Sequence record: OZ418233.1
DNA length: 40,362 nucleotides
Strand: one strand, 5' to 3'
From: a phage
Numbering within the stretch: the first letter of the stretch is position 1; each line of letters starts with the position of its first letter. The position numbers and the translations under genes were made by a program. Positions 1 through 40,362 of the stretch are shown here, in pieces. The notes beneath the pieces are model-generated. The model searched no databases and was not told where the DNA came from. It was given only the letters and a program-made list of their open reading frames with translations.

Positions 1-78
1 TTGAATACTGCCGCCAACTATGGCGGCTTTATTTTGCATGGTACTATTACCACAACGGTAACTATTACCACGGTGGTT

Positions 79-675
79 ATGATGCCTGCTGAACCTAAAA
101 CCTATAAACGCAAATCAACGCAATTTAAGCCGCTCACAGCAATGCAGGAGGCTTATTGCCAGTCATACATCAAAACGCCTGAAAACCAGACTCAGGCAGC
201 GATTAACGCAGGATTCTCCCCAAATACAGCGGCAGTTAAAGCCAGTGTCATGATGCGCGATGAACGCATTCAAAAACGGATTGCCGAGTTGATGGAGGAG
301 CGCAACAAACGAATGCGCGTCAGTGCCGATTACGTTCTCATGCGCCTGGTGGAGATCGACCAGATGGACGTGATTGATATCCTCAATGACGATGGGAGCC
401 TTAAGCCAATCCGCGAGTGGCCGAAAATCTGGCGCACTACGCTTAGTGGCTTTGATCTGTCATCGACCATCATGAACATGAACGAGGATTCGATAGAGAC
501 AATTCTCAAAAAAATTAAATGGCCTGACAAGGTGAAGAACCTCGAACTGATTGGTAAGCACGTCGACGTCAATGCATTCAAAGAACGCCTGGATGTTAAT
601 GTGAATGTGACAATTGCTGATCGCATAGCGGCAGCCAGGAAGCGACTCAAAGAACGTCAGGATGGTAATCAGTGA
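79..675 (+). CDS. terminase small subunit
   Basis: ORF is open from window start; first in-frame ATG at 79 gives about 198 aa. Translation has the layout I associate with Terminase_2-type small subunits (QEAYCQSYIKTPENQTQAAINAGFS...). Stop overlaps the GTG start of the next gene (GTGA at 672-675). Confidence 0.7.
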   Translation: MMPAEPKTYKRKSTQFKPLTAMQEAYCQSYIKTPENQTQAAINAGFSPNTAAVKASVMMRDERIQKRIAELMEERNKRMRVSADYVLMRLVEIDQMDVIDILNDDGSLKPIREWPKIWRTTLSGFDLSSTIMNMNEDSIETILKKIKWPDKVKNLELIGKHVDVNAFKERLDVNVNVTIADRIAAARKRLKERQDGNQ

Positions 676-2147
676 CAGATACAGCGTTATCTCCTGAAGA
701 GCAGTTGATCGAGGATATTGCAGGGTTCACTCACGATCCGCTTGGCTATGCCCTCTATGCGTTCCCGTGGGGGGAAGATGGGACTGAACTGGCACATGCC
801 ACCGGTCCACGTAAGTGGCAGGCTGATGCGTTCCGAGAGATACGTGATCACCTGCAGAATCCAGAGACGCGCTATCAGCCGCTTATGCTGGCACGCGCTT
901 CTGGTCACGGTATTGGTAAATCCGCATTCATCTCAATGCTGATCAACTGGGGCATGTCCACTTGCGAGGATTGTAAGGTCGTGGTGACCGCCAACACCGA
1001 CAACCAGCTACGAACGAAGACCTGGCCGGAAATTATCAAGTGGTCGAACCTTGCTATCACGAAAGACTGGTTCACCTGCACCGCTACCGCGATGTACAGC
1101 AATGATCCTGGGCACGACAAGCGGTGGCGCGCTGACGCAATCCCCTGGTCTGAGCACAACACTGAGGCGTTCGCCGGACTACACAACGAGCGCAAACGCA
1201 TCATCGTGGTATTCGATGAAGCGTCGAACATTGCGGATCTGGTGTGGGAAGTTGCTGAGGGTGCGCTTACGGACGAAGACACTGAGATTATCTGGGTGGC
1301 GTTCGGAAACCCTACACGTAACACCGGGCGTTTCCGCGAATGTTTCCGCAAATATAAACACCGCTGGAAAACTGCGCAGATTGACAGCCGAACGGTGGAA
1401 GGCACTAACAAACAGCAGTTGCAGAAATGGGTTGATGACTACGGGGAAGACAGCGACTTCGTTAAAATCCGTGTGCGCGGCATATTCCCTGATGCATCTG
1501 AATTGCAGTTTATCCCTACCGGTCTTACTGATGAGGCAATGAAACGGGTGGTGACCGCTGCGCAGGTGGCGCATGCTCCGGTGATAATCGGTGTTGACCC
1601 GGCATATTCAGGCGTTGATGACGCGGTGATATACCTGCGGCAGGGGCTACACAGTAAGGTGCTGTGGACTGGCAACAAGACTACCGACGATCTGATTATG
1701 GCGAAGCGTATCGCTGACTTTGAAGACCAGTATCAGGCTGACGCGGTGTTCATCGACTTCGGTTACGGAACCGGTTTGAAGTCAATCGGTGACGGCTGGG
1801 GTCGTACATGGCAACTTGTTCCGTTCGGTGGCGCGTCTACTGACCCGCAGATGCTCAACAAGCGTGGGGAGATGTTCAACTCATGCAAGACATGGCTGAG
1901 GCTGGGCGGCATGCTGGATGACCAGGAAACTGCAGACGACCTGTCGGCGGCAGAGTACAAAGTTCGAGTGGACGGTAAAGTCGTTATCGAACCGAAGGAA
2001 GATATCAAGGAGCGGCTTGGGCGTTCTCCGGGTAAAGGCGATGCGCTACTGCTGACGTTTGCTTTCCCTGTGTCGAAGCGTCTGCGAATTCCTGGGCAGC
2101 AGAACCAGCAAGGCAAGGCCATCACAGATTATGACCCGTATGCTTAA
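672..2147 (+). CDS. terminase large subunit
   Basis: 491-aa ORF directly downstream of and translationally coupled to the small terminase; P-loop-like segment GHGIGKS; size and position typical of large terminase. Confidence 0.8.
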   Translation: MTDTALSPEEQLIEDIAGFTHDPLGYALYAFPWGEDGTELAHATGPRKWQADAFREIRDHLQNPETRYQPLMLARASGHGIGKSAFISMLINWGMSTCEDCKVVVTANTDNQLRTKTWPEIIKWSNLAITKDWFTCTATAMYSNDPGHDKRWRADAIPWSEHNTEAFAGLHNERKRIIVVFDEASNIADLVWEVAEGALTDEDTEIIWVAFGNPTRNTGRFRECFRKYKHRWKTAQIDSRTVEGTNKQQLQKWVDDYGEDSDFVKIRVRGIFPDASELQFIPTGLTDEAMKRVVTAAQVAHAPVIIGVDPAYSGVDDAVIYLRQGLHSKVLWTGNKTTDDLIMAKRIADFEDQYQADAVFIDFGYGTGLKSIGDGWGRTWQLVPFGGASTDPQMLNKRGEMFNSCKTWLRLGGMLDDQETADDLSAAEYKVRVDGKVVIEPKEDIKERLGRSPGKGDALLLTFAFPVSKRLRIPGQQNQQGKAITDYDPYA

Positions 2148-2237
2148 TCCGCTGGTGGGGATAATGTCGTTGATATCCTCTGATGAGGATAAAACAAAGC
2201 CAGCTCATCGGCTGGCTGTTTGTGACATGTCACGGTG

Positions 2238-2609
2238 TTATTGCTCGCTTAGCTTCTGCTTCAGCAAGTAACCTTCGAGCATCCAGATTTTGTTTACAGC
2301 ATTCTGCCGGGCAATCTTCCGACCAATTTCTGCATCAAAGTTTTCCGGGCTTGCACAGGCGCTCTCTCCGGTGACGGTGAAGCCGTTGCGCAGCACCAGA
2401 ACGCAGAACGTCAGCAGAGAAAGTGATTCGTGCGGCTGGTAGTTTACCTCTCCGCCAGTATGTTTCGCTTTTATGGCTACGCCAAAGACACCATCTTCTG
2501 CTGTGAAATATGCCTCCTGAGCAATAATGCTCTCGATATGGTCTGGCGTAACGCGCGGCGCGGCTAAACCTTTAGCCTGAATTTCAGATTCAATGTCTTT
2601 GTCACTCAT
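2238..2609 (-). CDS. hypothetical phage protein (123 aa)
   Basis: Clean minus-strand ORF with RBS-like AAGGTGAGA upstream of ATG at 2609; possibly a widespread small phage family, not verified. Confidence 0.45.
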   Translation of the reverse strand: MSDKDIESEIQAKGLAAPRVTPDHIESIIAQEAYFTAEDGVFGVAIKAKHTGGEVNYQPHESLSLLTFCVLVLRNGFTVTGESACASPENFDAEIGRKIARQNAVNKIWMLEGYLLKQKLSEQ

Positions 2610-2625
2610 AGTCTAATCTCACCTT

Positions 2626-2650
2626 AAAAAAATGCCCGGCGAACCGGGCG
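2626..2650 (-). terminator. intrinsic terminator downstream of tRNA (minus strand)
   Basis: Plus strand reads AAAAAAA + GCCCGGCGAACCGGGC; on the minus strand this is a GC-rich hairpin followed by a U-run. Confidence 0.6.
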
Positions 2651-2812
2651 AACTGGAAGCAATGAGTTATGCCTTCCGTGGCTGTACTGGTTTACAGCAT
2701 GAAGTCATCGCAATGGCGTCCTGCTGTAAAAAGGGCGGTGATAGTCCTTCAAGGGAAACCATCACCGCCAAGCACCTGGAACTTCTGGCATCACGGTCCT
2801 TAGGCGTGATTC

Positions 2813-2889
2813 TGGCGTGGCATGCAGGATTCGAACCTGCGACCAACCGCTTAGAAGGCGGTTGCTCTGTCCGACTGAGCTAATGCCAC
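2813..2889 (-). tRNA. tRNA-Arg (anticodon TCT)
   Basis: Reverse complement reads GTGGCAT-TA-GCTC-AGTCGGACA-GAGC-A-ACCGC-CTTCTAA-GCGGT-TGGTC-GCAGG-TTCGAAT-CCTGC-ATGCCAC-G-CCA: 7-bp acceptor stem, D, anticodon and T arms all pair, anticodon loop CT-TCT-AA, encoded CCA. Confidence 0.85.
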
Positions 2890-3211
2890 AACGCTGAGAG
2901 CACTTAGCCTGTTAAGGCGCCACACTTTGTCGCGGCTCCATAAATGCTCTCATCGTTGTACCCTCGTCTCTTCCGAGGCGTCACACCGAATAGCCGGGAT
3001 GGTGAATCCCCGTGCGCGGAATAAAACCGCTCGACTTGCACATTCCGGCTACCTGGTTCGTTTGCCCGAGCAAGGGAGGGTGCCCCTTAAACGTATCCAG
3101 ACCGCTATCGTCGCATGTGCCATACGCCGTACTGCTCAAAATAAAAGCTCACTCCACCTGTTCAATTTAACGACAAGCCAGTCAGGTTAGTAACCGGAAT
3201 GAGCTCTTTAG

Positions 3212-3226
3212 TTACCTGAAAGGTAA
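3212..3226. promoter_or_regulatory. palindromic operator-like motif TTACC-TGAAA-GGTAA
   Basis: Perfect TTACC-N5-GGTAA inverted repeat, about 90 bp upstream of the first virion gene; one of 12 such sites in the window. Confidence 0.55.
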
Positions 3227-3316
3227 TAATTAACGCGTTAAATGTCAACCTTCTACGATAAATAAAACATATGTGGTTAAATTGGTAATAATTTAATTGC
3301 GTACGGAGTCATTGAT

Positions 3317-3523
3317 ATGTGCATGGGTAGCTCACCATCAGTGCCTGCAACACCAGAAGTTCAGGCAGCACCACAGGAGCAGGATGCCGCCGTTGTTGAT
3401 GCCCGCGACGAAGAAACACGTCGCCGTCGCGCTGCTGCTGGTCGTAGTTCTACGCTGCTTACCGGTTCTCAGGGCGACACATCAACCGCTAATACCAGCG
3501 GTAAAACGCTGCTTGGTCAGTAA
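3317..3523 (+). CDS. small virion protein, T7 gp6.7-like (68 aa)
   Basis: Begins Met-Cys like T7 gp6.7 as I recall it; sits immediately before the portal gene; RBS GGAGT with a translation initiation region nearly identical to the portal's. Confidence 0.45.
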   Translation: MCMGSSPSVPATPEVQAAPQEQDAAVVDARDEETRRRRAAAGRSSTLLTGSQGDTSTANTSGKTLLGQ

Positions 3524-3537
3524 CCGGAGTCATTGAA

Positions 3538-5217
3538 ATGGCGGAAACAACTAAAGAGCGATTGAACAAACAGTTCGCACAACTTGAAAGCGAGCGTCAG
3601 TCGTTCGAGCCGCACTGGCGCGAGTTGAGTGATTACATCAACCCGCGTGGTTCCCGCTTTCTGACTTCTGAGGTCAACCGTAACGATCGACGCAATACAC
3701 GCATTATTGATTCGACCGGGACTATGGCGGCGCGCACTCTCGCCAGCGGCATGATGTCAGGCATCACAAGCCCCGCGCGTCCGTGGTTTCGCCTGGCTAC
3801 GCCAGATCCTGAAATGATGGATTATGGCCCTGTTAAGTTGTGGCTTGAGGCGGTGCAGAACCGCATGAACGATATGTTCAATAAGTCGAATCTCTACCAG
3901 TCTCTTCCGCAGTTATACGGAAGCCTCGGCACATACAGCACTGGTGCAATGGCGGTGCTGGAGGATGACGAGGACATCATTCGCACAATGCCATTCCCGA
4001 TAGGCAGTTACTACCTGGCTAACTCACCTCGTGGCAGTGTGGACACCTGTTTTCGCAAGTTCTCTATGACTGTTCGTCAGCTTGTTCAGGAGTTCGGACT
4101 AAATAACGTCAGCGAATCCGTAAAAAGCATGTGGGAAAGCGGCGCCTACGAGAAGTGGATTGACGTGATGCATTCGGTTTACCCGAACATTGACCGCGAT
4201 ACATCGAAGCTGGATAGCAAGAACAAGCCATTCAAATCGGTTTATTACGAGGTTGGTGGCGATAACGACAAGTTGTTGCGTGAGTCCGGATTCGATGAGT
4301 TCCCAATTATGGCTCCGCGCTGGGAAGTTAACGGCGAAGATGTTTATGGATCATCATGCCCGGGTATGCTGGCGCTTGGACCTGTTAAGGCACTGCAGCT
4401 TCTCCAGAAGCGCAAGTCGCAGTTGATTGATAAAGCCACCAATCCGCCGATGGTTGCTCCGACTTCCCTCAAGAATCAGCGTGCCTCCCTTCTTCCTGGC
4501 GACATCACGTATATCGATCAGATTACTGGTCAGGATGGTTTCAGGCCTGCTTATCTGGTTAACCCCAGTACAGCAGATTTGGTGGCAGACATTCAGGACA
4601 CTCGTCAAATCATTAACAGCGCCTACTTTGTCGATCTGTTCATGATGTTGCAGAACATCAATACCCGCTCGATGCCTGTTGAAGCGGTGATCGAAATGAA
4701 AGAAGAAAAACTTCTGATGTTGGGGCCGGTTCTGGAGCGTCTGAACGACGAATGTCTTAATCCTCTCATTGACCGCGCTTTCTCGATGATGGTGCGTAAA
4801 AACATGCTGCCGCCACCGCCTGACGCGATGGAAGGTATGCCCCTGAAGGTCGAATACATTTCTGTCATGGCTCAGGCGCAGAAGTCTATCGGCCTGTCCA
4901 GTCTGGCGTCCACGGTTAACTTCATTGGTCAACTTGCGCAAGCGAAACCAGAAGCTCTCGACAAACTCAACGTTGATCAGGCGATCGATGCATTCGCTGA
5001 TATGTCCGGAGTGTCTCCAACCGTCATTGTTCCGCAGGAACAGGTTGAGCAGGCTCGCCAGCAACGGGCACAGCAACAACAGCAGCAACAAATGATGGCG
5101 ATGGGGATGGCGGCGGCACAGGGTGCCAAGACGCTAAGCGAAGCTAAAACTTCGGATCCGAGTGTTTTGTCAGCTATGGCGAATGCAGTTAGTGGTCAGG
5201 GTGGGCAATCACAATGA
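3538..5217 (+). CDS. portal (head-to-tail connector) protein, T7 gp8-like
   Basis: 559-aa ORF with Q-rich C-terminus (QQQQQQQMMAMGMAAAQG...) as in T7-type connectors; gene order portal-scaffold-capsid. Confidence 0.85.
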   Translation: MAETTKERLNKQFAQLESERQSFEPHWRELSDYINPRGSRFLTSEVNRNDRRNTRIIDSTGTMAARTLASGMMSGITSPARPWFRLATPDPEMMDYGPVKLWLEAVQNRMNDMFNKSNLYQSLPQLYGSLGTYSTGAMAVLEDDEDIIRTMPFPIGSYYLANSPRGSVDTCFRKFSMTVRQLVQEFGLNNVSESVKSMWESGAYEKWIDVMHSVYPNIDRDTSKLDSKNKPFKSVYYEVGGDNDKLLRESGFDEFPIMAPRWEVNGEDVYGSSCPGMLALGPVKALQLLQKRKSQLIDKATNPPMVAPTSLKNQRASLLPGDITYIDQITGQDGFRPAYLVNPSTADLVADIQDTRQIINSAYFVDLFMMLQNINTRSMPVEAVIEMKEEKLLMLGPVLERLNDECLNPLIDRAFSMMVRKNMLPPPPDAMEGMPLKVEYISVMAQAQKSIGLSSLASTVNFIGQLAQAKPEALDKLNVDQAIDAFADMSGVSPTVIVPQEQVEQARQQRAQQQQQQQMMAMGMAAAQGAKTLSEAKTSDPSVLSAMANAVSGQGGQSQ

Positions 5218-5510
5218 CAGATTACGAAGACGATCAACTGAAAGAAGAAAACGCCCGCAAGCAACGTGACATGGCACAGCGTGAAATTGATGACATTCGC
5301 TTTGTCATGAGCAGTGAACAGGGGCGTCGCGTTGTCTGGTCGGTGCTGGAGAAAGGCCGGGTGTTTTCCGCTATCTCTCCGATGGATGCTATGGCAATGG
5401 CATTTAATGAGGGGCAACGCAATCTGGCGCTGGAACTGTTTCAGCGCGTTATGGCGCATTGCCCTGAACAGTATTTGAAGATGGCCAAAGAGGCCAGTGA
5501 ACAGGAGTGA
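5214..5510 (+). CDS. hypothetical head-module protein (98 aa)
   Basis: ATG overlaps portal stop (ATGA); charged, helical-looking sequence between portal and scaffold genes. Confidence 0.45.
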   Translation: MTDYEDDQLKEENARKQRDMAQREIDDIRFVMSSEQGRRVVWSVLEKGRVFSAISPMDAMAMAFNEGQRNLALELFQRVMAHCPEQYLKMAKEASEQE

Positions 5511-5512
5511 TC

Positions 5513-6208
5513 ATGAGTTTATTTGAGCGTTTGCTGTATCGCCGTCTTTGCAATGAGCAACAAGTCGATGGTGGGGCAGCTCCGGCTGCGTCAGAACCGT
5601 CAGCGCATGCAGGTGATAACCCTGCTCCTGTTGGTGATCCATCACAACAGGAAGGTGATAAGCCACAACCTGTTTCTGATGGCGATAAACCTGCTGATGA
5701 CAAAAAGCCTGAAAACGATAAGCAGGATGAAAAAAAGGGCGGCGATAAACCAGAGGGTGCGCCTGAGAAGTACGAGTTTCAGGCTGCCGAAGGCGTAGAG
5801 CTGGATACAGAAGCGTTGAAGGAATTCGAGCCGGTGGCGCGAGAACTAAACCTGACCAACGAGCAAGCGCAAAAGCTGGTTGATGCTTATCCGAAGATTC
5901 TGGCAGGTGTGCAGCAGCGTCAGGCAGAAGCCTGGCAGAAAACAACCGAGCAGTGGGCTGCTGATGTAAAAGCTGACAAAGAAATCGGTGGCGACAAGTT
6001 GATTTCTAACCTTAGCGCCGCACAGCGTGCGCTTGACCAGTTCGGGACACCTGAACTCAAAGAATATCTGAACACCACCGGGCTGGGTAATCACCCTGAT
6101 CTGGTCAAAACGTTCGTGAAAATCGGAAAGGCGATGTCTGAAGATGGCATGGTCACCGGTGGTAATGAAGGCCAGCGTAGTGCGGCCGAAGTGCTCTATG
6201 GCAAATAA
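5513..6208 (+). CDS. scaffolding protein (putative)
   Basis: Highly acidic protein with a long D/E/K/P-rich low-complexity segment, located between portal and major capsid genes; RBS CAGGAG 5 nt before ATG 5513. Confidence 0.55.
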   Translation: MSLFERLLYRRLCNEQQVDGGAAPAASEPSAHAGDNPAPVGDPSQQEGDKPQPVSDGDKPADDKKPENDKQDEKKGGDKPEGAPEKYEFQAAEGVELDTEALKEFEPVARELNLTNEQAQKLVDAYPKILAGVQQRQAEAWQKTTEQWAADVKADKEIGGDKLISNLSAAQRALDQFGTPELKEYLNTTGLGNHPDLVKTFVKIGKAMSEDGMVTGGNEGQRSAAEVLYGK

Positions 6209-6222
6209 GAGAGGAAATGACA

Positions 6223-7209: not shown

Positions 7210-7260
7210 CGCCTGTTATTAACCTGTGTGTCGTAACAGACCCACTAATGGAGAAAGAAG

Positions 7261-7698: not shown

Positions 7699-7708
7699 GG
7701 TGATATCG

Positions 7709-8044: not shown

Positions 8045-8060
8045 GCCTCGCGAATCCGAC

Positions 8061-8082
8061 AAGGGGCTTCGGCCCCTTTACT
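8061..8082 (+). terminator. intrinsic terminator candidate
   Basis: AAGGGGC-TTCG-GCCCCTT hairpin followed by a short T tract. Confidence 0.5.
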
Positions 8083-8094
8083 GCAGGAGTGTAT

Positions 8095-30438: not shown

Positions 30439-30444
30439 TAACGT

Positions 30445-31936: not shown

Positions 31937-31985
31937 AAATACCTCTCTTGGTTGCAGTGCGGCGCGTGTGGCGCCGCGGTGGTGG

Positions 31986-33745: not shown

Positions 33746-34041
33746 GCCGCGTCCCTCTGTCCATCAAGCTGATCCGCCAGATCCCAGCGGGCGATAATTG
33801 CCATTGCCTCTCGCCGATAGGCATCCATCAGTTCTTCGAACTCAGGGCTGTCTTTAGCAGCCTCCAGTACTTCCTGACGAACGCCTTTGCCTGTTACAAC
33901 GTCAAAAGTTGAGGACAGTTGATGAAGTCGGATGCTCTCAATCAGTTCAACTTGTCGGTCATATAGCTGTTCTGACAGGCGGTAGTCCTTGTCGAATGCC
34001 AGCATGATTTTTTGAAGATTTTTCTGCTGATTAACGTTCAT
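33742..34041 (-). CDS. hypothetical early protein (99 aa)
   Basis: Start at MNVNQQ with RBS GGGAGGG; stop overlaps the exonuclease start. Confidence 0.4.
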   Translation of the reverse strand: MNVNQQKNLQKIMLAFDKDYRLSEQLYDRQVELIESIRLHQLSSTFDVVTGKGVRQEVLEAAKDSPEFEELMDAYRREAMAIIARWDLADQLDGQRDAA

Positions 34042-34043
34042 TA

Positions 34044-34196
34044 TCAGCCCTCCCATATCTCGTTATCGTTGGCTACATCGCGAGCTTCTTTGCTGACGAA
34101 AGCCCACTTAATGCCTTCCTGTAAGGTGCGGAACTTCCAGCTCATGAATCCGCATGCAGTAACGCAGTACCAACCGTTGATGATTTTCCACTGCAT
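34044..34196 (-). CDS. hypothetical small early protein (50 aa)
   Basis: Not in ORF track; read manually: ATG with RBS GAGGT, MQWKIINGWYCVTACGFMSWKFRTLQEGIKWAFVSKEARDVANDNEIWEG; first gene after the leftward promoter/operators. Confidence 0.3.
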   Translation of the reverse strand: MQWKIINGWYCVTACGFMSWKFRTLQEGIKWAFVSKEARDVANDNEIWEG

Positions 34197-34215
34197 AACT
34201 TGTTACCTCGGTCTG

Positions 34216-34230
34216 TTACCGTTGAGGTAA
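34216..34230. promoter_or_regulatory. operator-like motif TTACC-GTTGA-GGTAA
   Basis: Perfect palindrome at the head of the leftward early operon. Confidence 0.55.
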
Positions 34231-34277
34231 TAATTATGCGTATCTGGTTTGATGTCAATAGATATGAGTTAAAAAAA

Positions 34278-34292
34278 TTACCCGTTAGGTAA
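34278..34292. promoter_or_regulatory. operator-like motif TTACC-CGTTA-GGTAA
   Basis: Perfect palindrome 62 bp from the previous site. Confidence 0.55.
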
Positions 34293-34302
34293 TCGAATAG
34301 GC

Positions 34303-34328
34303 AATAAAAAAGCCGCCATAAGGCGGCT
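34303..34328 (-). terminator. intrinsic terminator after the repressor gene (minus strand)
   Basis: On the minus strand AGCCGCC-TTAT-GGCGGCT hairpin followed by TTTTTTATT. Confidence 0.7.
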
Positions 34329-34349
34329 TACTTACTGAAAAATATGATT

Positions 34350-34934
34350 TTATTGTTTGTTTTTTTCGTTCTGGTTGATGACAAATTCAATGTAACTTTC
34401 GATCTTTGCCTTCTCTGTTTCAGGTAGCAATGCGTAGCGCGAGCGGTCATAGTTGATAGTCGCGGGGTCGTGCGGGTGAATCAGTAATTCATATCCGTGA
34501 CGCCCAAATGCGGATGCAACATTCTCCAGGGTGGAAATGGAAACGCTGACCTCATTGTTTAACAGGCGGCTGATTGTTACCTGGGCGACGCCGGATGCGC
34601 GGTGAAGTTTTCCCTGCGTTGAAAGGTCGCGGCTTTCGCTCATCCAGCGTTCCAGGTTGTGAGCCGCCAGTTGACCAATGTCGCTTGGTCCGACAGGCTG
34701 AAAACCTTCCTGAGAAAGCGAGCGATCGATATCAAGCCAGTTACGGGGTTTATTGGCGGCAGCTTCAATTTTTCGCGCAACCTGGTCGCCGATAACCTTC
34801 TTGCCAAGAGCCCAGCGGTTTACCAGATTTGCCTGAGTTCCAAGTTTTTCAGCCATCCGCGTCTGAACACCATTGAATTCACGGTCGATCAAGTCGTTGA
34901 GATTTTGCCTGCGGACGTCCTGGATACTTTTCAT
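34350..34934 (-). CDS. prophage repressor candidate with two HTH (XRE-like) domains, no peptidase domain
   Basis: 194 aa; two HTH-like segments (…TRMAEKLGTQANLVNRWALGK… and …SGVAQVTISRLLNNEVSVSISTLENVASAFG…); divergent from a Cro-like gene with two palindromic operators between them; no Ala-Gly/Ser...Lys S24-type self-cleavage module seen. Confidence 0.55.
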   Translation of the reverse strand: MKSIQDVRRQNLNDLIDREFNGVQTRMAEKLGTQANLVNRWALGKKVIGDQVARKIEAAANKPRNWLDIDRSLSQEGFQPVGPSDIGQLAAHNLERWMSESRDLSTQGKLHRASGVAQVTISRLLNNEVSVSISTLENVASAFGRHGYELLIHPHDPATINYDRSRYALLPETEKAKIESYIEFVINQNEKNKQ

Positions 34935-34989
34935 TTTCTGGAAAATCGCCTCATATCTGAATCAGAAGATGATTCAATTTAAAGCAATA

Positions 34990-35004
34990 TTACCCAACAG
35001 GTAA
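34990..35004. promoter_or_regulatory. operator-like motif TTACC-CAACA-GGTAA (immunity region)
   Basis: Perfect palindrome in the repressor/Cro-like divergent intergenic region. Confidence 0.6.
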
Positions 35005-35037
35005 ATGCACCTCATGGGTAACTATCCTTGATTTTTG

Positions 35038-35052
35038 TTACCTTATAGGTGA
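35038..35052. promoter_or_regulatory. operator-like motif TTACC-TTATA-GGTGA (one mismatch) overlapping a rightward promoter
   Basis: Sits between a -35-like TTGTTA (35035-35040) and a -10-like TATTAT (35058-35063, 17-bp spacing) upstream of the Cro-like gene. Confidence 0.55.
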
Positions 35053-35088
35053 ATATTTATTATCTGAAATAAATATCAGGCAATAGCT

Positions 35089-35319
35089 ATGAGCGATAAC
35101 GGACATTTCGATTTCAAAAAGCACTGGCTTGCACTTACTCCGGATGAGCGTGAAGCCTTCGCACAGGAAGCCGGAACGACGAGTCACTATATCCAGACTC
35201 ACTTAACAGGTAAGCGCAAAATGCCAGGTAAGGTATTGATGAATGGGCTTTTTAAAGCCTGTAAATCAAGACAATGGCTGCGCTCAAAAGCAGAACTGGC
35301 ATACTTCTTCTACTCATGA
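35089..35319 (+). CDS. Cro-like small HTH regulator (76 aa)
   Basis: Small basic protein with an HTH-like segment (EREAFAQEAGTTSHYIQTHLTG), first gene of the rightward operon, divergent from the repressor. Confidence 0.5.
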   Translation: MSDNGHFDFKKHWLALTPDEREAFAQEAGTTSHYIQTHLTGKRKMPGKVLMNGLFKACKSRQWLRSKAELAYFFYS

Positions 35320-35340
35320 TATCCAGCCACAACCCTCTGT

Positions 35341-35364
35341 AGACCGCCATCCGGCGGTCTTTTC
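35341..35364 (+). terminator. intrinsic terminator candidate after the Cro-like gene
   Basis: AGACCGCC-ATCC-GGCGGTCT 8-bp stem followed by TTTC; followed by a partial operator GCACC-TCAAA-GGTAA at 35375-35389. Confidence 0.5.
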
Positions 35365-35469
35365 ATATCTATTCGCACCTCAAAGGTAATAAAAAACCAA
35401 ATCTGGTTGATCTTTTTTTTGTGTCAGCACAAAATGACCGTAATCCCAATGCTAATAACAGGGCTTACC

Positions 35470-35670
35470 ATGGAAATCATTACACGTATTGATGCCGCAA
35501 AGCGCGGACTTAAACGCTACTACACCGGAAAACCATGTAAGCACGGACATGACAGTGAACGCTGGGTTTACAACGGACACTGTGTTGAGTGCACCATGGA
35601 ATCAAACCGTCGCATCAGGGCAGAGATTAAGCAGATCATGATTAATTCCTCCCCACAACATTCAAGCTGA
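35470..35670 (+). CDS. hypothetical small protein with Cys/His cluster (66 aa)
   Basis: CKHGHDSERWVYNGHCVEC suggests a metal-binding knuckle; start uncertain (weak RBS). Confidence 0.35.
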   Translation: MEIITRIDAAKRGLKRYYTGKPCKHGHDSERWVYNGHCVECTMESNRRIRAEIKQIMINSSPQHSS

Positions 35671-35685
35671 TAGCGGAGATTAATC

Positions 35686-36525
35686 ATGAGCAGACATGCA
35701 ACAGATTGGGCCTGGGAGACAGATCCAGGTAGCTCGTCATTAAAGCTCATACTGCTCTCGATGGCTGACAGAGCCGATGAATATAACCTCTGCTACCCCA
35801 GCATAGAACGCCTCGTTAAAGACACTTGCCTGAATAAAAAAACCGTGCAGGCCGGGCTTATATCGCTCATGAAAATGGGGCTTATTTCAGATACCGGAGA
35901 GAGAAAGGGAGCGACAAAAAGAGTGCGGGTTTTCTCTCTTAATATAACCAAAAACGGGAACATTAAAGGCAACCGGGAGGGGGGCAATGAACCCGAAAAC
36001 GGTAATGTTACCGAAAACGGGAATATACCCAAAAACGGGATGTTGAATGATCCCAAAAACGGGATGTTGAATGATCCCAAAAACGGGATGTTGAATGATC
36101 CCAAAAACGGGATCCAGAACCAGTCATATAACCAGTCATTTAACCAAGAGAGGGAGAGCAGGACAAAAAACGGGGATTCTGTGCCTCATGACCCTGGCGC
36201 AAACAACGCCGTGATGAATAACTTTGTTCCTCCTGGTGGGCCAGGGCAATTAGGCAAATTTGTCATGCATGAACAATGGCAACCATCAGATGACTTTCTT
36301 CGGAAAAGCTCATTGCAGGGGATCTACCTGGACAGTCTGCCAACGGCACAGGAACTTGCAGAGTTCAGAATTTACTGGATGGCTGAGGGTAAGGCATACC
36401 ATCAGGCACAGTGGGAGCAGAAGCTGGCAAGGCGGCTGCAGATTAGCAGACAGAAGCAATCAACATTACCTGATAACAACGTTCCGCACTGGAACAGCCC
36501 TGAAGCATGGGAGGATTTCTTGTGA
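35686..36525 (+). CDS. replication initiator (lambda O-like, N-terminal HTH) containing origin iterons
   Basis: RBS GGAG; N-terminal HTH-type region (…SSSLKLILLSMADRADEYNLCYPSIERLVKDT…); central coding region made of direct DNA repeats (translated NGMLNDPK x3); followed by a P-like gene. Confidence 0.7.
   Translation: MSRHATDWAWETDPGSSSLKLILLSMADRADEYNLCYPSIERLVKDTCLNKKTVQAGLISLMKMGLISDTGERKGATKRVRVFSLNITKNGNIKGNREGGNEPENGNVTENGNIPKNGMLNDPKNGMLNDPKNGMLNDPKNGIQNQSYNQSFNQERESRTKNGDSVPHDPGANNAVMNNFVPPGGPGQLGKFVMHEQWQPSDDFLRKSSLQGIYLDSLPTAQELAEFRIYWMAEGKAYHQAQWEQKLARRLQISRQKQSTLPDNNVPHWNSPEAWEDFL
36028..36113. repeat. iteron array (3.5 copies of a 24-bp direct repeat CCCAAAAACGGGATGTTGAATGAT), putative origin
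   Basis: Direct repeats at 36028, 36052, 36076 and partial at 36100; additional degenerate AAAACGG(G/T)AA units at about 35949, 35993 and 36011; in lambda the ori iterons lie inside the O gene. Confidence 0.7.
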
Positions 36526-37307
36526 ACAACGTTTTTACCGCGATACAAAACCGTGACGGAGAAGCCCTTTCTCGCATGTCAGGTTATGAGCATCAGTACG
36601 TCAACAATGACAATGTGGTTAACATGTCAGCAGAGAGGCTTGTTGATGCCCTTTTCAAACAGCTGAAACAACTGTTTCCGGCGGCAGTGGTAACCAACCT
36701 GAAGACGCCAGAGCAGGAAGTAGCTGCAAAACAGCAGTGGATTGCTGCGTTTGCCGAAGGGGGGATCCGAACCCGTGAACAGGTTTCTGCTGGTATGCGC
36801 CACGCCCGCGCCAGTGAATCTCCGTTCTGGCCGTCGCCTGGGCAATTCATCAAGTGGTGTAAAGACAGCAAGATGGTTCTTGGCGTCACCATTGACGATG
36901 TGATGGCGGAGTTTCACCGGTACAGCAAGGAAAAAAGTTTATATCCTGGTGGTCCCGAAAGATTCCCGTGGCGACATCCGGTTATGTACTGGGTCGTATG
37001 TGATACCCGCCGTGCAATGTATCAGCGCCAGCTTAGCGAGATTGAGGTTGAGAAACACGCGCGCAGGCTGCTCGATGATTGGGCGAAAAAGGTGGCTTCC
37101 GGACAGCAGATACCGGATCCGGTGATCAGCATACAGGCAAAGCCAGAACCCATGAGTACGCCTCCGGACACAGGGAGAGACGTTTACCATCCACCAGGGC
37201 GAAGTTTCGGGTGCATGCCTAACGCCGCCACCCTTGGGGGAATAACACCGGCGCAGTGGCTGATGGAGGAATACAGGCGGGGAAAGGCGGCAGGATTTAT
37301 CAAGTAA
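36522..37307 (+). CDS. replication protein P-like (helicase loader)
   Basis: Aligns by eye with lambda P as I recall it (NGITTMEQVNAGMRVARRQNRPFLPSPGQFVAWC versus GGIRTREQVSAGMRHARASESPFWPSPGQFIKWC here); GTG start overlapping the O stop with RBS GGGAGGA. Confidence 0.75.
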   Translation: MNNVFTAIQNRDGEALSRMSGYEHQYVNNDNVVNMSAERLVDALFKQLKQLFPAAVVTNLKTPEQEVAAKQQWIAAFAEGGIRTREQVSAGMRHARASESPFWPSPGQFIKWCKDSKMVLGVTIDDVMAEFHRYSKEKSLYPGGPERFPWRHPVMYWVVCDTRRAMYQRQLSEIEVEKHARRLLDDWAKKVASGQQIPDPVISIQAKPEPMSTPPDTGRDVYHPPGRSFGCMPNAATLGGITPAQWLMEEYRRGKAAGFIK

Positions 37308-37344
37308 TACCAGCGCGATAGCGCATTTTTTTACGCCTCGATAG

Positions 37345-37359
37345 TTACCTATTGGGTAA
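37345..37359. promoter_or_regulatory. operator-like motif TTACC-TATTG-GGTAA
   Basis: Perfect palindrome downstream of the P-like gene. Confidence 0.55.
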
Positions 37360-37406
37360 CAAAATATTCTAAATTCTATTGATTTCGTGTCTTATGTGGT
37401 TTTTAA

Positions 37407-37421
37407 TTACCTAAGAGGTAA
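37407..37421. promoter_or_regulatory. operator-like motif TTACC-TAAGA-GGTAA overlapping an RBS
   Basis: Perfect palindrome ending 3 nt before ATG 37425; its right half doubles as the SD (GAGGT). Confidence 0.55.
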
Positions 37422-37424
37422 ATC

Positions 37425-37769
37425 ATGAGAAAACAGATACAGGCTCTTGGTCGACTCAAAACAGGCCAGATGAACAAAACAGAATCTGCGTATTGCCAGC
37501 ACCTTGAGCAGCGTAAACGTGCAGGGGAAATCGCCTGGTATCGATTCGAGGGTATCAAGCTGCGGTTAGCTGATAACACGTTTTATACGCCCGATTTCGC
37601 TGTGATGCTCGCCACCGGCGAGATGGAACTGCACGAAGTGAAAGGTTTCTGGACCGAAGACGCCAGGGTGAAAACCAAAGTCGCCGCAGATCAGTATCCG
37701 TTCCGAATCATCGGGGTAACGGTTAAACCAAAGAAAGCAGGTGGTGGCTGGAAAATCGAAGAGTTCTGA
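37425..37769 (+). CDS. hypothetical protein (114 aa), possibly a small nuclease-fold protein
   Basis: Position after replication genes; acidic/Lys pattern (…YTPDFAVML…ELHEVKG…) could be a PD-(D/E)XK-like core; unverified. Confidence 0.35.
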   Translation: MRKQIQALGRLKTGQMNKTESAYCQHLEQRKRAGEIAWYRFEGIKLRLADNTFYTPDFAVMLATGEMELHEVKGFWTEDARVKTKVAADQYPFRIIGVTVKPKKAGGGWKIEEF

Positions 37770-37830
37770 ATCGACGATCTTTTTAGTTATCAATGTAATC
37801 AATAAGTTATGTGGATAAGCGAGGGTAAAG

Positions 37831-38457
37831 ATGGAAAGTAATATCAAAGGGTTAGTTGCCGCCGGGCATGAGATGGCTTCGGAACTGAAAGCAGAATGTG
37901 GTGCCGTTGATATGCGCAGTGTGGCAAAGCTGATCAGCGATTTGGCAACGCAACTGGAAGTGCAACTGGTGCGTGCTAATGCGCTGGCCGAAGACCAGCA
38001 GAAAGCGATTGAGTCAATTAAGCAGGCTGATTCGGCTGTTAAGTTGGCGCACGAGAAGTTTTCGGCGCTGGCAGCGGAGAATGCGGGGCTGAAACACGCA
38101 ATGGCCGTAACTCTTGAGCATGTGTCGGTCACGGATGCAGGGCAGGCCGGAGTTGCTGCAATGATTATCAACGATGCCCTGCACCACAGCGAAACCCCAG
38201 CCACCGATGCTTTCCTGGCTGAAGTGAAGACTGAAGCACGCAAGGAGGGCGCTTACTTTGTGGCGAACACAATGCTGGCTGCCTGGGAAGCTGGTTTTAT
38301 TGATGATACTGCGAAGAACGCCGCGGATATTGCCCGGATGATTCTTACCTCTACTGAGTTTATGGCTAATGCGCCGGAAGGCGATTTTGACCGCTCATTC
38401 TCTGATGGCGTTCTCGAAGATATCGCCGCCCAGCTTCGCAAAGGAGGCAACCAGTGA
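37831..38457 (+). CDS. hypothetical nin-region protein (208 aa)
   Basis: Ala-rich helical protein with RBS GAGGG upstream; possibly Ea22-like, unverified. Confidence 0.35.
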   Translation: MESNIKGLVAAGHEMASELKAECGAVDMRSVAKLISDLATQLEVQLVRANALAEDQQKAIESIKQADSAVKLAHEKFSALAAENAGLKHAMAVTLEHVSVTDAGQAGVAAMIINDALHHSETPATDAFLAEVKTEARKEGAYFVANTMLAAWEAGFIDDTAKNAADIARMILTSTEFMANAPEGDFDRSFSDGVLEDIAAQLRKGGNQ

Positions 38458-38879
38458 GCAAGATTGACTATCAGGTACTGCGTGAGGCAGCAGTAGCAAT
38501 TGAAACAGTAGCAACGCCTCAAAAATTGCTGGCATTTCGTATGAAAGTCACACCTCAGGTTGTGCTGGCACTACTGGATGAACGGGAAGCAGACAAAAAG
38601 CGCATTGCAGAACTGGAAGCACGGGAAATAAAACCAGCCAAAGGTGAAGTTCTTGTCGTTGTTTCTGGTTTTACTGGTTGCGGAAAAAGCGCCATCGCCG
38701 GGGAAATAGAAATCGCGATGCAGGCTATTGGTGTACCGGTTCAGTGGACTAATGGCGATGCGGAAAAGCGCATGACAGGAGCTGACTGGCTGACAGCGAT
38801 TGAGATGTACAAACCAACAGTGCGCATCGTGGAAGTTAATGTGCCACGCGCCCCTGGCATTCGCATCAAAGGAGAGTGA
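38454..38879 (+). CDS. hypothetical nin-region protein, Ead/Ea22-like (141 aa)
   Basis: GTG start overlapping the upstream stop with RBS AAAGGAGG; N-terminus MSKIDYQVLREAA resembles Ea22-like prophage proteins as I recall them. Confidence 0.4.
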   Translation: MSKIDYQVLREAAVAIETVATPQKLLAFRMKVTPQVVLALLDEREADKKRIAELEAREIKPAKGEVLVVVSGFTGCGKSAIAGEIEIAMQAIGVPVQWTNGDAEKRMTGADWLTAIEMYKPTVRIVEVNVPRAPGIRIKGE

Positions 38880-38880
38880 T

Positions 38881-39453
38881 ATGACCACTATTACCAATAA
38901 GAAACAGTATCCCAGCGAGCAATATCTTAATGAGCTGATCACCAACATGGAGTTTGCCGCAAGGGCACCAGTTGAAGTCGTGAGAGCGATGGCAGCAGAG
39001 CTACAGAAGCGGCGCGAAGCTGATAGTGCAGAACCTGTAAGCCAAACTTACAAGTCACAACACACGCAGTTTGAACAAGTTGCTGACCTCTACGAAATGC
39101 AATTTGATGACGGTCGCACTTGTGCCTTTCACACTGATGCGCAAAAGGCTGCGCAATGGCTTCAGGCATGCGACGGAAACAGGGTTCAGGAATACGTGAA
39201 GCTGGAGCGATTGCGTAATGCGCTATCGGGCAACTATCCGGTAATTCCGGATGGTTGGATAAGCTGTAGTGAGCGAATGCCGGAAGAAACGGGTGACATT
39301 ATTGTTGTTTCTGATGGCATTGTAATGTCAGGGATTTCTTATTCTCGTCGTGACGGGTTCTATATAGCCGCATTGGAGTACGACGACGATGAGCCAATTG
39401 GCGGTGTAACCCACTGGATGCCGCTACCAGAACCGCCGCAGGAGGCGAAATGA
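38881..39453 (+). CDS. hypothetical protein, DUF551-like C-terminus (190 aa)
   Basis: RBS AAAGGAG; C-terminal DGWISCSERMPEE…WMPLPEPP resembles the DUF551 pattern seen in lambdoid prophages. Confidence 0.45.
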   Translation: MTTITNKKQYPSEQYLNELITNMEFAARAPVEVVRAMAAELQKRREADSAEPVSQTYKSQHTQFEQVADLYEMQFDDGRTCAFHTDAQKAAQWLQACDGNRVQEYVKLERLRNALSGNYPVIPDGWISCSERMPEETGDIIVVSDGIVMSGISYSRRDGFYIAALEYDDDEPIGGVTHWMPLPEPPQEAK

Positions 39454-39710
39454 TGGATGTAAAAGAGAAGGTTTTGCAGGTGATGCGTTCCCGGGCTGCC
39501 CTGCAAGATAAAGCTCTCGGCGGGGAATATCCATTCACGATAGCAACCTGGAATCTGCGGTTGGCAATGGAGAAGGAATTTCCTGATGAAGAATGGCGTT
39601 CGGCAGATTTGCGCAAAATTCTTATGGAAATGGCTAAAGACGGAACAGTATCCAAAGATACCTATGCCAGCCGGATTGGTCAGGCGGTATGGAGACTGGA
39701 GGTGCGGTAA
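39450..39710 (+). CDS. hypothetical small protein (86 aa)
   Basis: ATG overlaps upstream stop (ATGA) with RBS GGAGG. Confidence 0.35.
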   Translation: MMDVKEKVLQVMRSRAALQDKALGGEYPFTIATWNLRLAMEKEFPDEEWRSADLRKILMEMAKDGTVSKDTYASRIGQAVWRLEVR

Positions 39711-39991
39711 TGGCTAACCTACAGCTTGCTGTCAAAGGTGAATACTTCGATGCCATGATTCGCGGAGAGAAAACGGAGGAGTATCGCCTGTGTAATGACT
39801 ATTGGAATAAGCGAATTATGTTCCGGGAATATGACCGCCTGATTATCACAAAGGGATATCCGAAGCGCGACGATTCCAGTCGCAGAATAGACGTCCCGTA
39901 TGACGGATATGAAATCAAGACAATCACACATCCGCACTTCGGCGATAAACCGGTAAAGGTGTTCGCGATAAAGGTGAATATTGATGGCTAA
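39710..39991 (+). CDS. ASCH/PUA-like small protein (93 aa)
   Basis: Start overlaps upstream stop (TAATG); MANLQLAVKGEYFDAMIRGEKTEEYR fits the N-terminal pattern of ASCH-type domains; unverified. Confidence 0.4.
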   Translation: MANLQLAVKGEYFDAMIRGEKTEEYRLCNDYWNKRIMFREYDRLIITKGYPKRDDSSRRIDVPYDGYEIKTITHPHFGDKPVKVFAIKVNIDG

Positions 39992-40322
39992 ATCAGCAGC
40001 AGAGCGCAAAGCCGCTCAGAGAGCCAGACAAGCTGCATCTGGTGTGCGTAAGCTGGAAATTGTGCTTGATGCTCAGGAAATTGAAATGCTGGAGCGTAAC
40101 TGTGCCACGCGTCGCCCCGGGCGTGCGTCTTACGAATTTGGTGAGTATATAGCGTTATTGATCCGCCAGGATGATGCACGCGTGCACGGGCGTATAAAAT
40201 CGATCAGCAGAAAACGTTGCGGTAAGTGCGGCGAGAGAGTTCCAGTTAATTCATGCCCGTGTAATGGTGACTCGCAATGCTGGGTGACTAAAGGCTGGCA
40301 TGAAACGAAATTAATAGTGTGA
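39984..40322 (+). CDS. hypothetical basic protein with C-terminal zinc-ribbon-like CxxC pairs (112 aa)
   Basis: ATG 39984; basic N-terminus with a ribbon-helix-helix-like segment; C-terminal CGKCG…CPC cysteine cluster. Confidence 0.35.
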   Translation: MAKSAAERKAAQRARQAASGVRKLEIVLDAQEIEMLERNCATRRPGRASYEFGEYIALLIRQDDARVHGRIKSISRKRCGKCGERVPVNSCPCNGDSQCWVTKGWHETKLIV

Positions 40323-40362
40323 CATGTTACGAGTAGATTATGCATGATGAATTTGATGGGTT

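Follow-up and report, generated by a model that had tools for sequence, protein, structure and literature searches.

Sequence record OZ418233.1 as the probable complete genome of a temperate Uetakevirus podophage carrying an IS629-type insertion

The phage DNA of record OZ418233.1, given as one strand of 40,362 nucleotides (nt) and analysed here over its whole length (the window), joins podovirus-type virion genes to a lambda-like early region and carries an insertion sequence (IS), which raises the question of whether it is an entire phage genome, a piece of bacterial chromosome or a recent mosaic. Taken as a whole, it is best explained, with a probability that we put at roughly 0.93, as one complete genome of a temperate podophage of the genus Uetakevirus (the epsilon15/phiV10 group), to which an IS629-type insertion has been added. 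Genomes of this kind are already known, and the phage is essentially an ordinary member of its genus that happens to carry an IS; the architecture has been known for years from epsilon15 and phiV10, and public genomes contain the same sequence as a prophage.

Megablast searches of phage records with both halves of the window gave phiV10, the O157 typing phages 9 and 10, vB_EcoP_ZX5, phiv142-3 and PAS61 as top matches and Tyrion, epsilon15 and SPN1S as more distant ones, and every match listed is a Uetakevirus or a near relative, which bears out the relation to epsilon15/phiV10-like podophages for which a preliminary description of the window had proposed a BLASTN check. In blastn the window is collinear with phiV10 (1-14884 with phiV10 41-14924, 16193-20611 with 14920-19338, 28885-37988 with 26621-35713 and 39711-40322 with 38493-39104), and window positions 40323-40362 return to phiV10 1-40 at 100% identity, so that the window ends wrap around the phiV10 map, which argues for a full circular permutation. 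The prophage at guaA in Escherichia coli 118UI (NZ_CP032515; the 118UI prophage) shows 0 mismatches over window 1-14884, 16193-29000 and 28984-40362 (blastn), and inside it window positions 40362 and 1 are adjacent. In the window, the spanin gene Rz, the phage attachment site attP and the integrase gene int are contiguous with a single att core, and hence the DNA would be an excised or virion-type form and not a chromosomal segment. The sequence as given is such a circular (excised or virion-type) permutation, and it begins at the annotated start of terS, the gene of the small terminase subunit. Without the IS (1310 bp) and its target duplication (3 bp) the 40,362 nt are reduced to 39,049 bp, in agreement with the earlier estimate of about 39.05 kb, and the 118UI prophage measures 39,066 bp including both cores, that is, 39,049 + 17. 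The contiguity of the ends in this prophage and the exact wrap onto phiV10 thus confirm that the window is one phage genome unit, as had been claimed, and the integrase gene (29191-30438) does lie inside it, flanked on either side by phage genes, with no host gene present. Complete E. coli genomes searched with the Rz-int region contain guaA-adjacent prophages, five of them 100% identical to the window from 28984 onward; for the ECO_2_R, ECO_1_S, EECO1006 and MSB1_7C prophages the 100% identity refers to the att-int segment (28984-30600), to which that comparison was confined.

By the practice of the International Committee on Taxonomy of Viruses, a genus unites phages of about 70% or more nucleotide similarity and a species those of at least 95% over the full genome length. 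Positions identical to phiV10, computed from blastn, come to about 31.9 kb of 39.05 kb (about 82%), which places the phage in Uetakevirus; gene order and core proteins agree with this, the modules being collinear with epsilon15 and phiV10, as does the capsid, with a GP7 major capsid protein (PF20911, E-value 2.9e-149) and a gp10 staple (PF21628, E-value 1.1e-51). It falls outside the species Uetakevirus phiV10, since about 82% is below 95% and the tailspike and accessory blocks are replaced. A phage family match was found for every open reading frame (ORF) tested, tblastn matched 45 of the 52 window proteins to phiV10 and 37 to epsilon15, and no evidence contradicting the identification with the epsilon15/phiV10 group was found. 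Genes for a tail tube and a tailspike, together with the absence of tape-measure or sheath genes, point to a short-tailed morphology. The union of a podovirus virion module with a lambda-like early region is the published architecture of the genus, an old and established lineage and no new mosaic.

The attP core (ATTGAGTGGGAATGATT, 28984-29000) is 17 bp long and consists of the last 15 nt of guaA plus 2 nt; it is duplicated at both ends of the 118UI prophage, where guaA ends at the equivalent of window 28998, and the same 17-mer is the attP/attB of phage ZX5 (PMC9782041). Next to it lies the gene of a tyrosine integrase of the P4 type with an arm-binding domain (29191-30438, plus strand; PF13356, PF00589, PF22022). 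The core thus matches the 3' end of guaA and is present in a copy at either end of the prophage, as in a guaA-integrating P4-type module; by this sequence evidence, the integrase recombines the 17-bp core with the 3' end of guaA and rebuilds its last codons. Two findings had been named beforehand that would speak against a single phage unit, namely host genes at the window ends with att repeats elsewhere and top hits to unrelated phage groups; neither was obtained, as host DNA meets the 17-bp core, not the window ends. Several observations on related loci may be added. About 200 bp beyond the attR core of its prophage, the 118UI chromosome carries an IS200C transposase gene. The records NZ_CP079771.1 and NZ_CP079768.1 (41,027 bp, duck E. 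coli), entered as plasmids, are related Uetakevirus genomes with contiguous Rz-attP-int (93.5% identity) and, by this sequence, are circular phage genomes deposited as plasmids. In the GPEC1186 chromosome (NZ_CM142789.1), positions 4436905-4439205 match the full Rz-attP-int query, unbroken at the att core, which suggests a tandem prophage, another integration site or an assembly artefact.

The insertion that sets the window apart from the 118UI prophage is an IS629-type element of the IS3 family (14884-16193, plus strand, 1310 bp). It has terminal inverted repeats (TGAACCGCCCCGGG...), two overlapping ORFs, orfA (14938-15264, plus strand, 108 residues) and orfB (15261-16151, plus strand, 296 residues), a -1 frameshift signal in the form of an ALIL pseudoknot (15219-15335; Rfam, 120 bits) and a 3-bp target duplication, TGG, on its two flanks (14881-14883 and 16194-16196), as do members of the IS629 group. 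Its sequence agrees at 100% with the IS of record AF017626, from the int region of phage 21, and at 96% with copies annotated as IS629 in O157 Stx phages; close relatives of IS629 are named IS1203 and IS3411, and the window copy shows no notable difference. It is absent from phiV10 and from the 118UI prophage, and apart from the att permutation it is the sole difference between the latter and the window. The gene that it interrupts encodes the ortholog of epsilon15 gp15 and phiV10 gp18, a large virion protein of which one region resembles lytic transglycosylases. On translation, the truncated frame (12503-14932, plus strand) is cut after codon 793 of 837 and runs on through 16 IS-encoded codons, and the last 44 codons are left as an orphaned 3' end (16194-16329, plus strand). 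The intact copy of the 118UI prophage, of 837 residues, matches phrog_992 and transglycosylase-type PHROGs; the protein is 59% identical to epsilon15 gp15, with an alignment that holds to residue 815 and is least conserved in the C-terminal third. The window thus offers a clean case of an IS629-type element jumping into a phage structural gene, at a site that is new among the phage, plasmid and complete E. coli genome collections searched, and if the phage is still infectious, it would carry the IS between hosts.

Whether it is infectious depends on what the insertion does to the virion, and it is quite possible, if short of probable, that the sequence is a dead derivative in which the IS kills the gp15 ortholog and possibly lowers expression of the gp16- and gp17-like genes, so that excision or replication could take place and infectious particles could not form. 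The loss of the last 44 of 837 codons fits this, as the phrog_992 profile reaches residue 832 and the alignment to epsilon15 gp15 residue 815, although it is the C-terminal third that is the protein's least conserved part. The 1.3 kb of foreign DNA now lie between the gp15 ortholog and the translationally overlapping gp16-like gene, yet the IS is oriented with the late operon and no strong internal terminator was detected in it. A junction unseen in other phages, plasmids and complete E. coli genomes is what would be expected of a recent, unselected event; the intact attP junction, on the other hand, implies DNA that is at least in a circular or virion form, and headful packaging usually tolerates an increase in size of 3.4%. 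We retain the complete temperate Uetakevirus genome with an added IS as the description of the whole.

Lysogeny of this phage appears to be under the control of a switch of the type described for phage SPC32H. The repressor gene rep (34350-34934, minus strand) encodes a protein that aligns over residues 1-190 with chain A, 'Repressor', of PDB 5D50 (E-value 4e-42); Pfam finds only a helix-turn-helix (HTH) domain and no peptidase S24 domain in it, and hence Rep, a member of the SPC32H family lacking a LexA-like S24 peptidase, is not a lambdoid CI. As Rep is 100% identical to phiV10 Rep (and 42% identical to epsilon15 Rep; tblastn), the same immunity as that of phiV10 should be expected. The small antirepressor Ant (23945-24202, minus strand, 85 residues) matches chain E, 'Anti-repressor protein', of the same entry (E-value 4.2e-46), and a near-consensus LexA (SOS) box (CTGTATATTTATACAG, 24225-24240) lies 22 nt upstream of the ant start codon; the LexA pattern was found three times, versus 0.59 expected, and the match at 24225-24240 alone has an AT-rich consensus-like core. 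A Rep without autocleavage domain, a small Ant and a predicted LexA control of ant are, at the sequence level, the components of the SPC32H-type switch, in which Ant takes tetrameric Rep apart (PMC9638917), and Ant-type induction under LexA control is the common pattern in Salmonella prophages (PMC7380047). By homology, Rep would maintain lysogeny without a self-cleavage domain, and DNA damage would remove LexA from the box before ant, whereupon Ant would inactivate Rep.

A second antirepressor-like protein, with a BRO-N domain, is encoded at 22113-22799 (minus strand; PF02498, phrog_130 'anti-repressor Ant'). Its leader contains, in tandem, a C4 antisense RNA-like element (22848-22934, minus strand; Rfam RF01695, 79.5 bits) and an IsrK-like element (22953-23029, minus strand; Rfam RF01394, 76.8 bits), both above the gathering score and in a layout like that of P1 immI, behind which RNAs this BRO-type antirepressor would, by homology, be placed. 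Between both antirepressor units stands the gene of a 242-residue protein with a C-terminal zinc-ribbon or Lar-like segment (23194-23922, plus strand; phrog_6762, with weak matches to endonuclease VII and Lar-like PHROGs).

The reach of the repressor may extend well beyond the early promoters. The palindrome ATTACC-N5-GGTAAT occurs 15 times in the window, versus 1.07 matches expected (motif search), and 13 of the 15 copies are intergenic; in all, about 12 control regions between genes bear it. Two of these (34215-34231 and 34277-34293) flank and overlap the hexamers of a PL promoter-like sequence, TTGACA-17-AATTAT (34258-34230, minus strand), within the PL region 34215-34293, and one (34989-35005) lies in the divergent region between rep and the Cro-like gene, where PR-like hexamers occupy 35035-35063. 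A second rightward control region before the 'nin-position' genes (37344-37422, plus strand) repeats the layout of PL, with palindromes at 37344-37360 and 37406-37422 around TTGATT...TTAATT. Two copies (46-62 and 64-80) abut the terS start codon, and another (3211-3227) lies 90 nt upstream of the unit that begins with the gp3-like and portal genes, at the same offset as epsilon15 2931-2947. The BRO operon has three, at 22031-22047 and, in the region where it diverges from the gene of the 242-residue protein, at 23065-23081 and 23158-23174, next to promoter-like hexamers (23109-23080 and 23064-23036); a perfect copy (ATTACCTAAAAGGTAAT, 24279-24295) separates ant from the tailspike gene, in the position of epsilon15 19895-19911, and one with two mismatches (29133-29149) precedes int. 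The positions correspond to sites labelled 'repressor' in the epsilon15 record. The palindrome is probably a Rep-type operator, and its placement suggests that Rep probably silences most transcription units directly, with no Q cascade.

This bears on how the late genes are turned on. An intrinsic terminator (10-35, plus strand), consisting of the hairpin GCCGCC-AACTAT-GGCGGC (10-27) and a T-run to about position 35, stands before terS; it is annotated in epsilon15 and phiV10 and is kept beside terS in Uetakevirus-like loci, also where extra ORFs lie upstream. The two palindromes at terS are kept in all terS-linked loci compared, including two without the terminator, and the epsilon15 record labels the site 'repressor'. 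That no Q-like gene or late cassette precedes the terminase genes, as stated in the preliminary description, is correct as regards Q, since no protein of a Q family was found between P and terS in Pfam, PHROGs or NCBIfam and a lambdoid Q cassette is hence absent, but the terminator and two operator-like palindromes do occupy the place. An N antiterminator was likewise not found: the first PL genes (50 and 99 codons) have no arginine-rich motif by eye and no tblastn match to the lambda early region. Downstream of the terS terminator, no acceptable -10 element of a promoter was seen by eye. Because Q and N homologs are lacking and the palindrome heads late and early units alike, late control is probably unlike that of lambda, which had been suggested before as a possibility. 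More tentatively, the late genes of epsilon15-like phages might do without a Q-type step altogether, with terS reached by transcripts of the early-right or nin-position unit that read through the conserved terminator, one repressor silencing the early, late, integrase and antirepressor units directly, and some factor or mechanism of unknown nature passing the terminators.

We regard it as still less likely, though worth considering, that an unrecognisable Q-like processive antiterminator acts on the terS terminator. Two candidates can be named, the product of the last early-right gene (39984-40322, plus strand), an ortholog of epsilon15 gp49 and phiV10 gp55 with a predicted ribbon-helix-helix (RHH) fold and a Cys-rich tail, and a small AlpA-family Xis or regulator protein (31688-31936, minus strand). 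The RHH/Cys-rich protein has 711 homologs, none of them named, and in its structure model a strand-helix-helix arrangement makes up the N-terminal part, followed by a tail whose cysteines are invariant. In favour of it are a strong terminator between the early-right operon and terS, with about 45 nt after it and thus too little room for a promoter, the further intrinsic terminators after the Cro-like gene, and the small protein of DNA-binding type with conserved cysteines that is encoded directly upstream. Yet among 58 loci the RHH protein precedes terS only in Uetakevirus-like prophages, the next gene elsewhere being DUF1367, integrase, AbiTii or Dam, and the two terS-linked loci without a terminator keep the palindromes. 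Some AlpA-family proteins, such as AlpA of Pseudomonas aeruginosa, are antiterminators; the window protein, however, occupies the expected place of an excisionase, and its sole PDB relative is an AlpA-family regulator (8C3T, E-value 1.8e-11). A sigma-70 promoter can be proposed upstream of the terminator, but the match is weak and lacks conservation. Two related proposals were rejected: a dedicated role of the RHH/Cys-rich protein in late regulation is unsupported, the 58 loci showing no fixed link to the terminase, and a sigma-70 late promoter between its gene and terS comes down to a single 9/12 match that relatives do not conserve. In our reading, one repressor probably silences most units directly and terS would be reached by read-through from upstream, and the terminator together with the widespread operator palindrome frames a testable question, that of late control across the genus.

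The same interval contains two further small elements. A mini-ORF of eight codons, MHDEFDGF*, runs from 40340-40362 into 1-4 and ends 5 nt before the terminator hairpin; relatives preserve it with synonymous changes (MRDEFDGF, MTDEFDGF, MLDEFDGF), epsilon15 has no mini-ORF, and two relative loci have instead an ORF of 85 codons that ends in ...DEFKLI/EEFKLV. It could be a gene remnant or a terminator-coupled leader peptide. The RHH/Cys-rich gene shares its stop codon with a palindrome, GTGACATGT(T/C)AC (40319-40330), of which epsilon15 and several prophages have a perfect copy and which is retained in one locus where the upstream sequence differs.

The terminase genes follow. In the annotation by the Prokaryotic Genome Annotation Pipeline (PGAP) and in that of phiV10, terS starts at the TTG at window 1, a start that overlaps the terminator and runs through both palindromes. 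The true start is probably the ATG at 82, as in epsilon15 (terS 82-675, plus strand), and the shared long-form annotation is probably wrong, because the TTG form overlaps the terminator, and the epsilon15 annotation (terS 47-643) and the boundary of the Pfam domain (Terminase_2, E-value 1.4e-29, from residue 45 of the long form) agree with the shorter one. The large terminase subunit TerL (672-2147, plus strand; phrog_2) is 99% identical to those of phiV10 and ZX5; it has no match in Pfam, NCBIfam or PDB sequences, and its distant tblastn relatives include PacB of P1, P7 and D6. A TerS of the Terminase_2 family, a PacB-related TerL and the HHpred notes in the epsilon15 record (Sf6 gp2, SF6 TerS) together suggest that packaging is probably of the headful (pac) kind, by a terminase distantly related to P1 PacB. 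A literature search on packaging mode or late control in this genus gave nothing.

Some points count against the interpretation put forward so far. The junction between IS and gp15-ortholog gene was not found in the phage records, plasmids and complete E. coli genomes searched, and we infer the headful mode of packaging only. The assignment of the palindrome to Rep draws on its position and on a GenBank label in the epsilon15 record that carries no reference, and the window and epsilon15 share the motif even though their Rep proteins are 42% identical, so that another binder is possible, for example the Cro-like protein, which is 78% identical.

Two alternatives that concern the sequence as a whole are far weaker. 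It is highly improbable that the window was cut from a chromosomal prophage and runs into host DNA at either or both of its ends, for although several hundred of the complete E. coli genomes searched contain very similar integrated prophages, the window has no host gene, Rz-attP-int is unbroken with one att core, the window ends lie internally and side by side in the integrated copy, and the wrap onto phiV10 is exact. Just as improbable is a recent chimera of a T7-like and a lambda-like phage, since the parallels of the virion block with T7 (portal, capsid, tail tube A and B and internal proteins, in this order) and of the early region with lambda come without any BLAST-level T7 match for the virion proteins, with lambda matches limited to int (weak), orf63/DUF1382, P and Ea22 (tblastn), and without a T7-type RNA polymerase, and since the same combination is present in epsilon15, phiV10, SPN1S, Tyrion and many prophages, as befits an old lineage.

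In the preliminary description, the virion genes had been numbered after T7. The numbering is fair as far as gene order and the remote homology of portal, tail tube and gp14 are concerned, but it finds no support for 'gp6.7', 'gp9' and 'gp10'. Of the resemblance to T7 gp8, gp11, gp12 and gp14-16, family profiles bring out only that of the portal, of the gp14-family protein and of tail tube A, and tblastn of all 52 proteins against the T7 genome gave no virion match; nor did any window protein match the T7 RNA polymerase gene, and hence a single-subunit phage RNA polymerase was not found. All genes of the block are on the plus strand. The supposed gp6.7 (3317-3523) is an ortholog of epsilon15 gp3 (phrog_831, 88% identical to epsilon15) and belongs to no Pfam family. 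It is followed by the portal of the T7 gp8-type family (3538-5217; Head-tail_con, PF12236, E-value 1.5e-187), a Bbp19-like protein (5214-5510; PF25181) and a protein of the head protease/scaffold region (5513-6208), the supposed gp9, which belongs to a protease family (phrog_458 'protease'). The capsid protein that had been called gp10 (6223-7209) is of the epsilon15 GP7 family, and after it come a Bbp16 cement protein (7261-7698; PF21190), a hypothetical protein (7709-8044) and the gp10 capsid staple (8095-8418). Proteins resembling tail tube A (8418-9023) and tail tube B (9023-11494) were recognised by PHROGs (phrog_394, phrog_9239 'tail tubular protein', phrog_376), and for epsilon15 gp11 the record notes an HHpred match with tail tubular protein A of T7. 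An internal virion protein (11494-11958; phrog_308 and phrog_418, which cover it and its neighbour) and one of the T7 gp14 family (11958-12503; PF24072, E-value 9.4e-7) precede the interrupted gp15 ortholog, and the orthologs of epsilon15 gp16 (16326-18128) and gp17 (18134-20608) close the series, a pair covered by phrog_1145 and phrog_684 'virion structural protein' and 97-99% identical to phiV10. The virion is thus expected to be of epsilon15 type: its GP7 capsid would have staple and cement proteins and a portal of the T7 family, its tail a hub and an O-antigen tailspike, and internal proteins would serve ejection.

Between the terminase and portal units, a protein of the Gp49/Sf6 gene 66 family (2238-2609, minus strand; PF13876, E-value 2.4e-35) and a tRNA-Arg (UCU) (2813-2889, minus strand; ARAGORN, Rfam) are encoded. 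The tRNA gene shares 91% identity with tRNA-Arg from isolates of Synechococcus phage S-RIM2, and a wider relation to the 65 Synechococcus phage records in the megablast output was dismissed, as only the tRNA-Arg gene matches.

Beyond the virion genes lies an accessory ('moron') block of mixed orientation (20618-22019) that replaces phiV10 sequence, is present in neither phiV10 nor epsilon15 and matches PHROGs of unknown or moron function. It comprises genes for small membrane proteins (20618-20791 and 20667-21101, plus strand), the late-operon terminator (21110-21127; terminator scan) and three ORFs on the minus strand (21133-21294, 21388-21831 and 21852-22019). The tailspike (24399-26588, plus strand) matches phrog_5662 over its full length and other tailspike PHROGs only over residues 1 to about 200; this N-terminal adaptor of about 200 residues is common to the epsilon15/phiV10 group, and the receptor-binding part is unlike that of phiV10 (blastn stops at 24833). 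The slot of phiV10 oac and of the epsilon15 O-antigen conversion genes is taken by a gene for a membrane protein of 94 residues (26597-26881, plus strand; phrog_1443). The lysis cassette, all on the plus strand, consists of two holin-like proteins (27084-27488 and 27475-27783), a GH19 endolysin (27773-28402) and an Rz-like spanin (28399-28896), identified by phrog_198, the PGAP annotation of the identical 118UI prophage and the annotation of phiV10.

On the other side of int, the early-left operon (30445-34196, minus strand; Pfam, PHROGs, tblastn) contains, along the coordinates, a DUF1382 protein similar to lambda orf63, an MT-A70 methyltransferase, a PerC-like protein, the AlpA-family protein, RecT, an exonuclease and two small ORFs. 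The PerC-family (Pch-like) activator homolog (31279-31530, minus strand) was recognised by PF06069 and phrog_868; PerC-family prophage genes regulate virulence loci in pathogenic E. coli. RecT (31986-32927, minus strand; PF03837) and the PD-(D/E)XK exonuclease (32924-33745, minus strand) would, at the level of their families, carry out recombination. They are two overlapping genes (31986-33745) here and in epsilon15, and the phiV10 record has one coding sequence, a 'RecE-RecT fusion', at 29722-31482, which implies either a frameshift difference or an error in that record.

Rightward from rep, a Cro-like gene (35089-35319, plus strand) is followed by an intrinsic terminator (35341-35360, plus strand; terminator scan) and the gene of a zinc-ribbon-like protein of 66 residues (35470-35670, plus strand), phrog_35 and phrog_1081 covering the pair of proteins. 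The replication initiator (35686-36525, plus strand; phrog_1032), which is O-like in function, combines an HTH_36 domain (PF13730) with a DnaT domain (PF17948) and is not a homolog of lambda O (tblastn). Inside its gene, at 35947-36174, are seven CCCAAAAACGGG-like iterons, four of them at 24-bp spacing, in repeat families D1 and D2. The adjoining helicase loader (36522-37307, plus strand) is of the lambda P family (PF06992, E-value 1.5e-56) and 31% identical to lambda P, so that the arrangement is that of lambdoid O/P replication with iterons in the initiator gene; judged by these families, replication would proceed by an iteron-binding initiator and a lambda-P loader. The 'nin-position' accessory genes (37425-39991, plus strand; Pfam and PHROGs) encode DUF1064, a protein of 208 residues, an Ea22-like protein, DUF551, a protein of 86 residues and an ASCH protein. 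Much of what had been read from the right half is therefore borne out: RecT, the exonuclease, an HTH repressor, a Cro-like gene, an O-like initiator and a lambda-P loader are all present, and the iterons are real. The label lambdoid, however, fits P, RecT/exonuclease, the iterons and the gene order and does not fit the immunity switch, made up of an SPC32H-type Rep and a LexA-controlled Ant, and the 'nin-like' genes earn their name by position but have no homology to lambda ninB-ninI (tblastn).

Set beside known phages, the window phage is most readily compared with phiV10 (NC_007804), with which it shares gene order throughout, about 98% nucleotide identity over about 82% of its length and 45 of 52 proteins. 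It differs in that its tailspike has another receptor-binding part from 24834 onward, the O-acetyltransferase gene oac is missing, with the 94-residue membrane protein in its stead, the accessory blocks 20612-22100 and 37989-39710 are exchanged, RecT and exonuclease are separate and not annotated as one fusion, and the IS is present. Because the tailspike is exchanged and the O-antigen modification gene is lacking, the phage is, to judge from its genes, a host-range variant with phiV10 immunity. The 118UI prophage differs from the window in being integrated, hence permuted at att, and in having a gp15-ortholog gene without the IS. Epsilon15 (NC_004775), the type member, has the same module order, att and integrase type, terminator before terS, places of the palindromes and RHH/Cys-rich gp49, but nucleotide identity is about 77% and limited to the virion half, the capsid accessory proteins, gp16/gp17 and Rep are much diverged (27-43% identical), and epsilon15 has O-antigen polymerase conversion genes and no lambda-P homolog. 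ZX5 (vB_EcoP_ZX5) belongs to the same genus and shares the att core and a 99% identical TerL, whereas its right-hand part aligns over only about half at the nucleotide level and it carries no IS.

Single modules find their counterparts further afield. With the Rep-Ant switch of SPC32H (PDB 5D50) the window has in common full-length Rep and Ant homologs, a LexA box before ant and a Rep without self-cleavage domain; unlike SPC32H, it adds a BRO-type antirepressor with C4/IsrK-like RNAs, and its switch is known from sequence. Lambda has a similar layout of int-xis, recombination, repressor/cro, iteron initiator, P and accessory genes, and homologs of its P, orf63 and Ea22 are encoded in the window, which in contrast to lambda has no N, Q, cII, cIII or nin homologs, a repressor of another family, lysis genes after the tail genes and not before the head genes, and a podovirus-type virion. 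T7, finally, shares the portal family (PF12236), the gp14 family and the order of tail tube A/B and internal virion proteins, but the window phage has no BLAST-level similarity to it, no phage RNA polymerase or T7-type replication genes, a capsid of the epsilon15 GP7 family with a protease, and a temperate life style.

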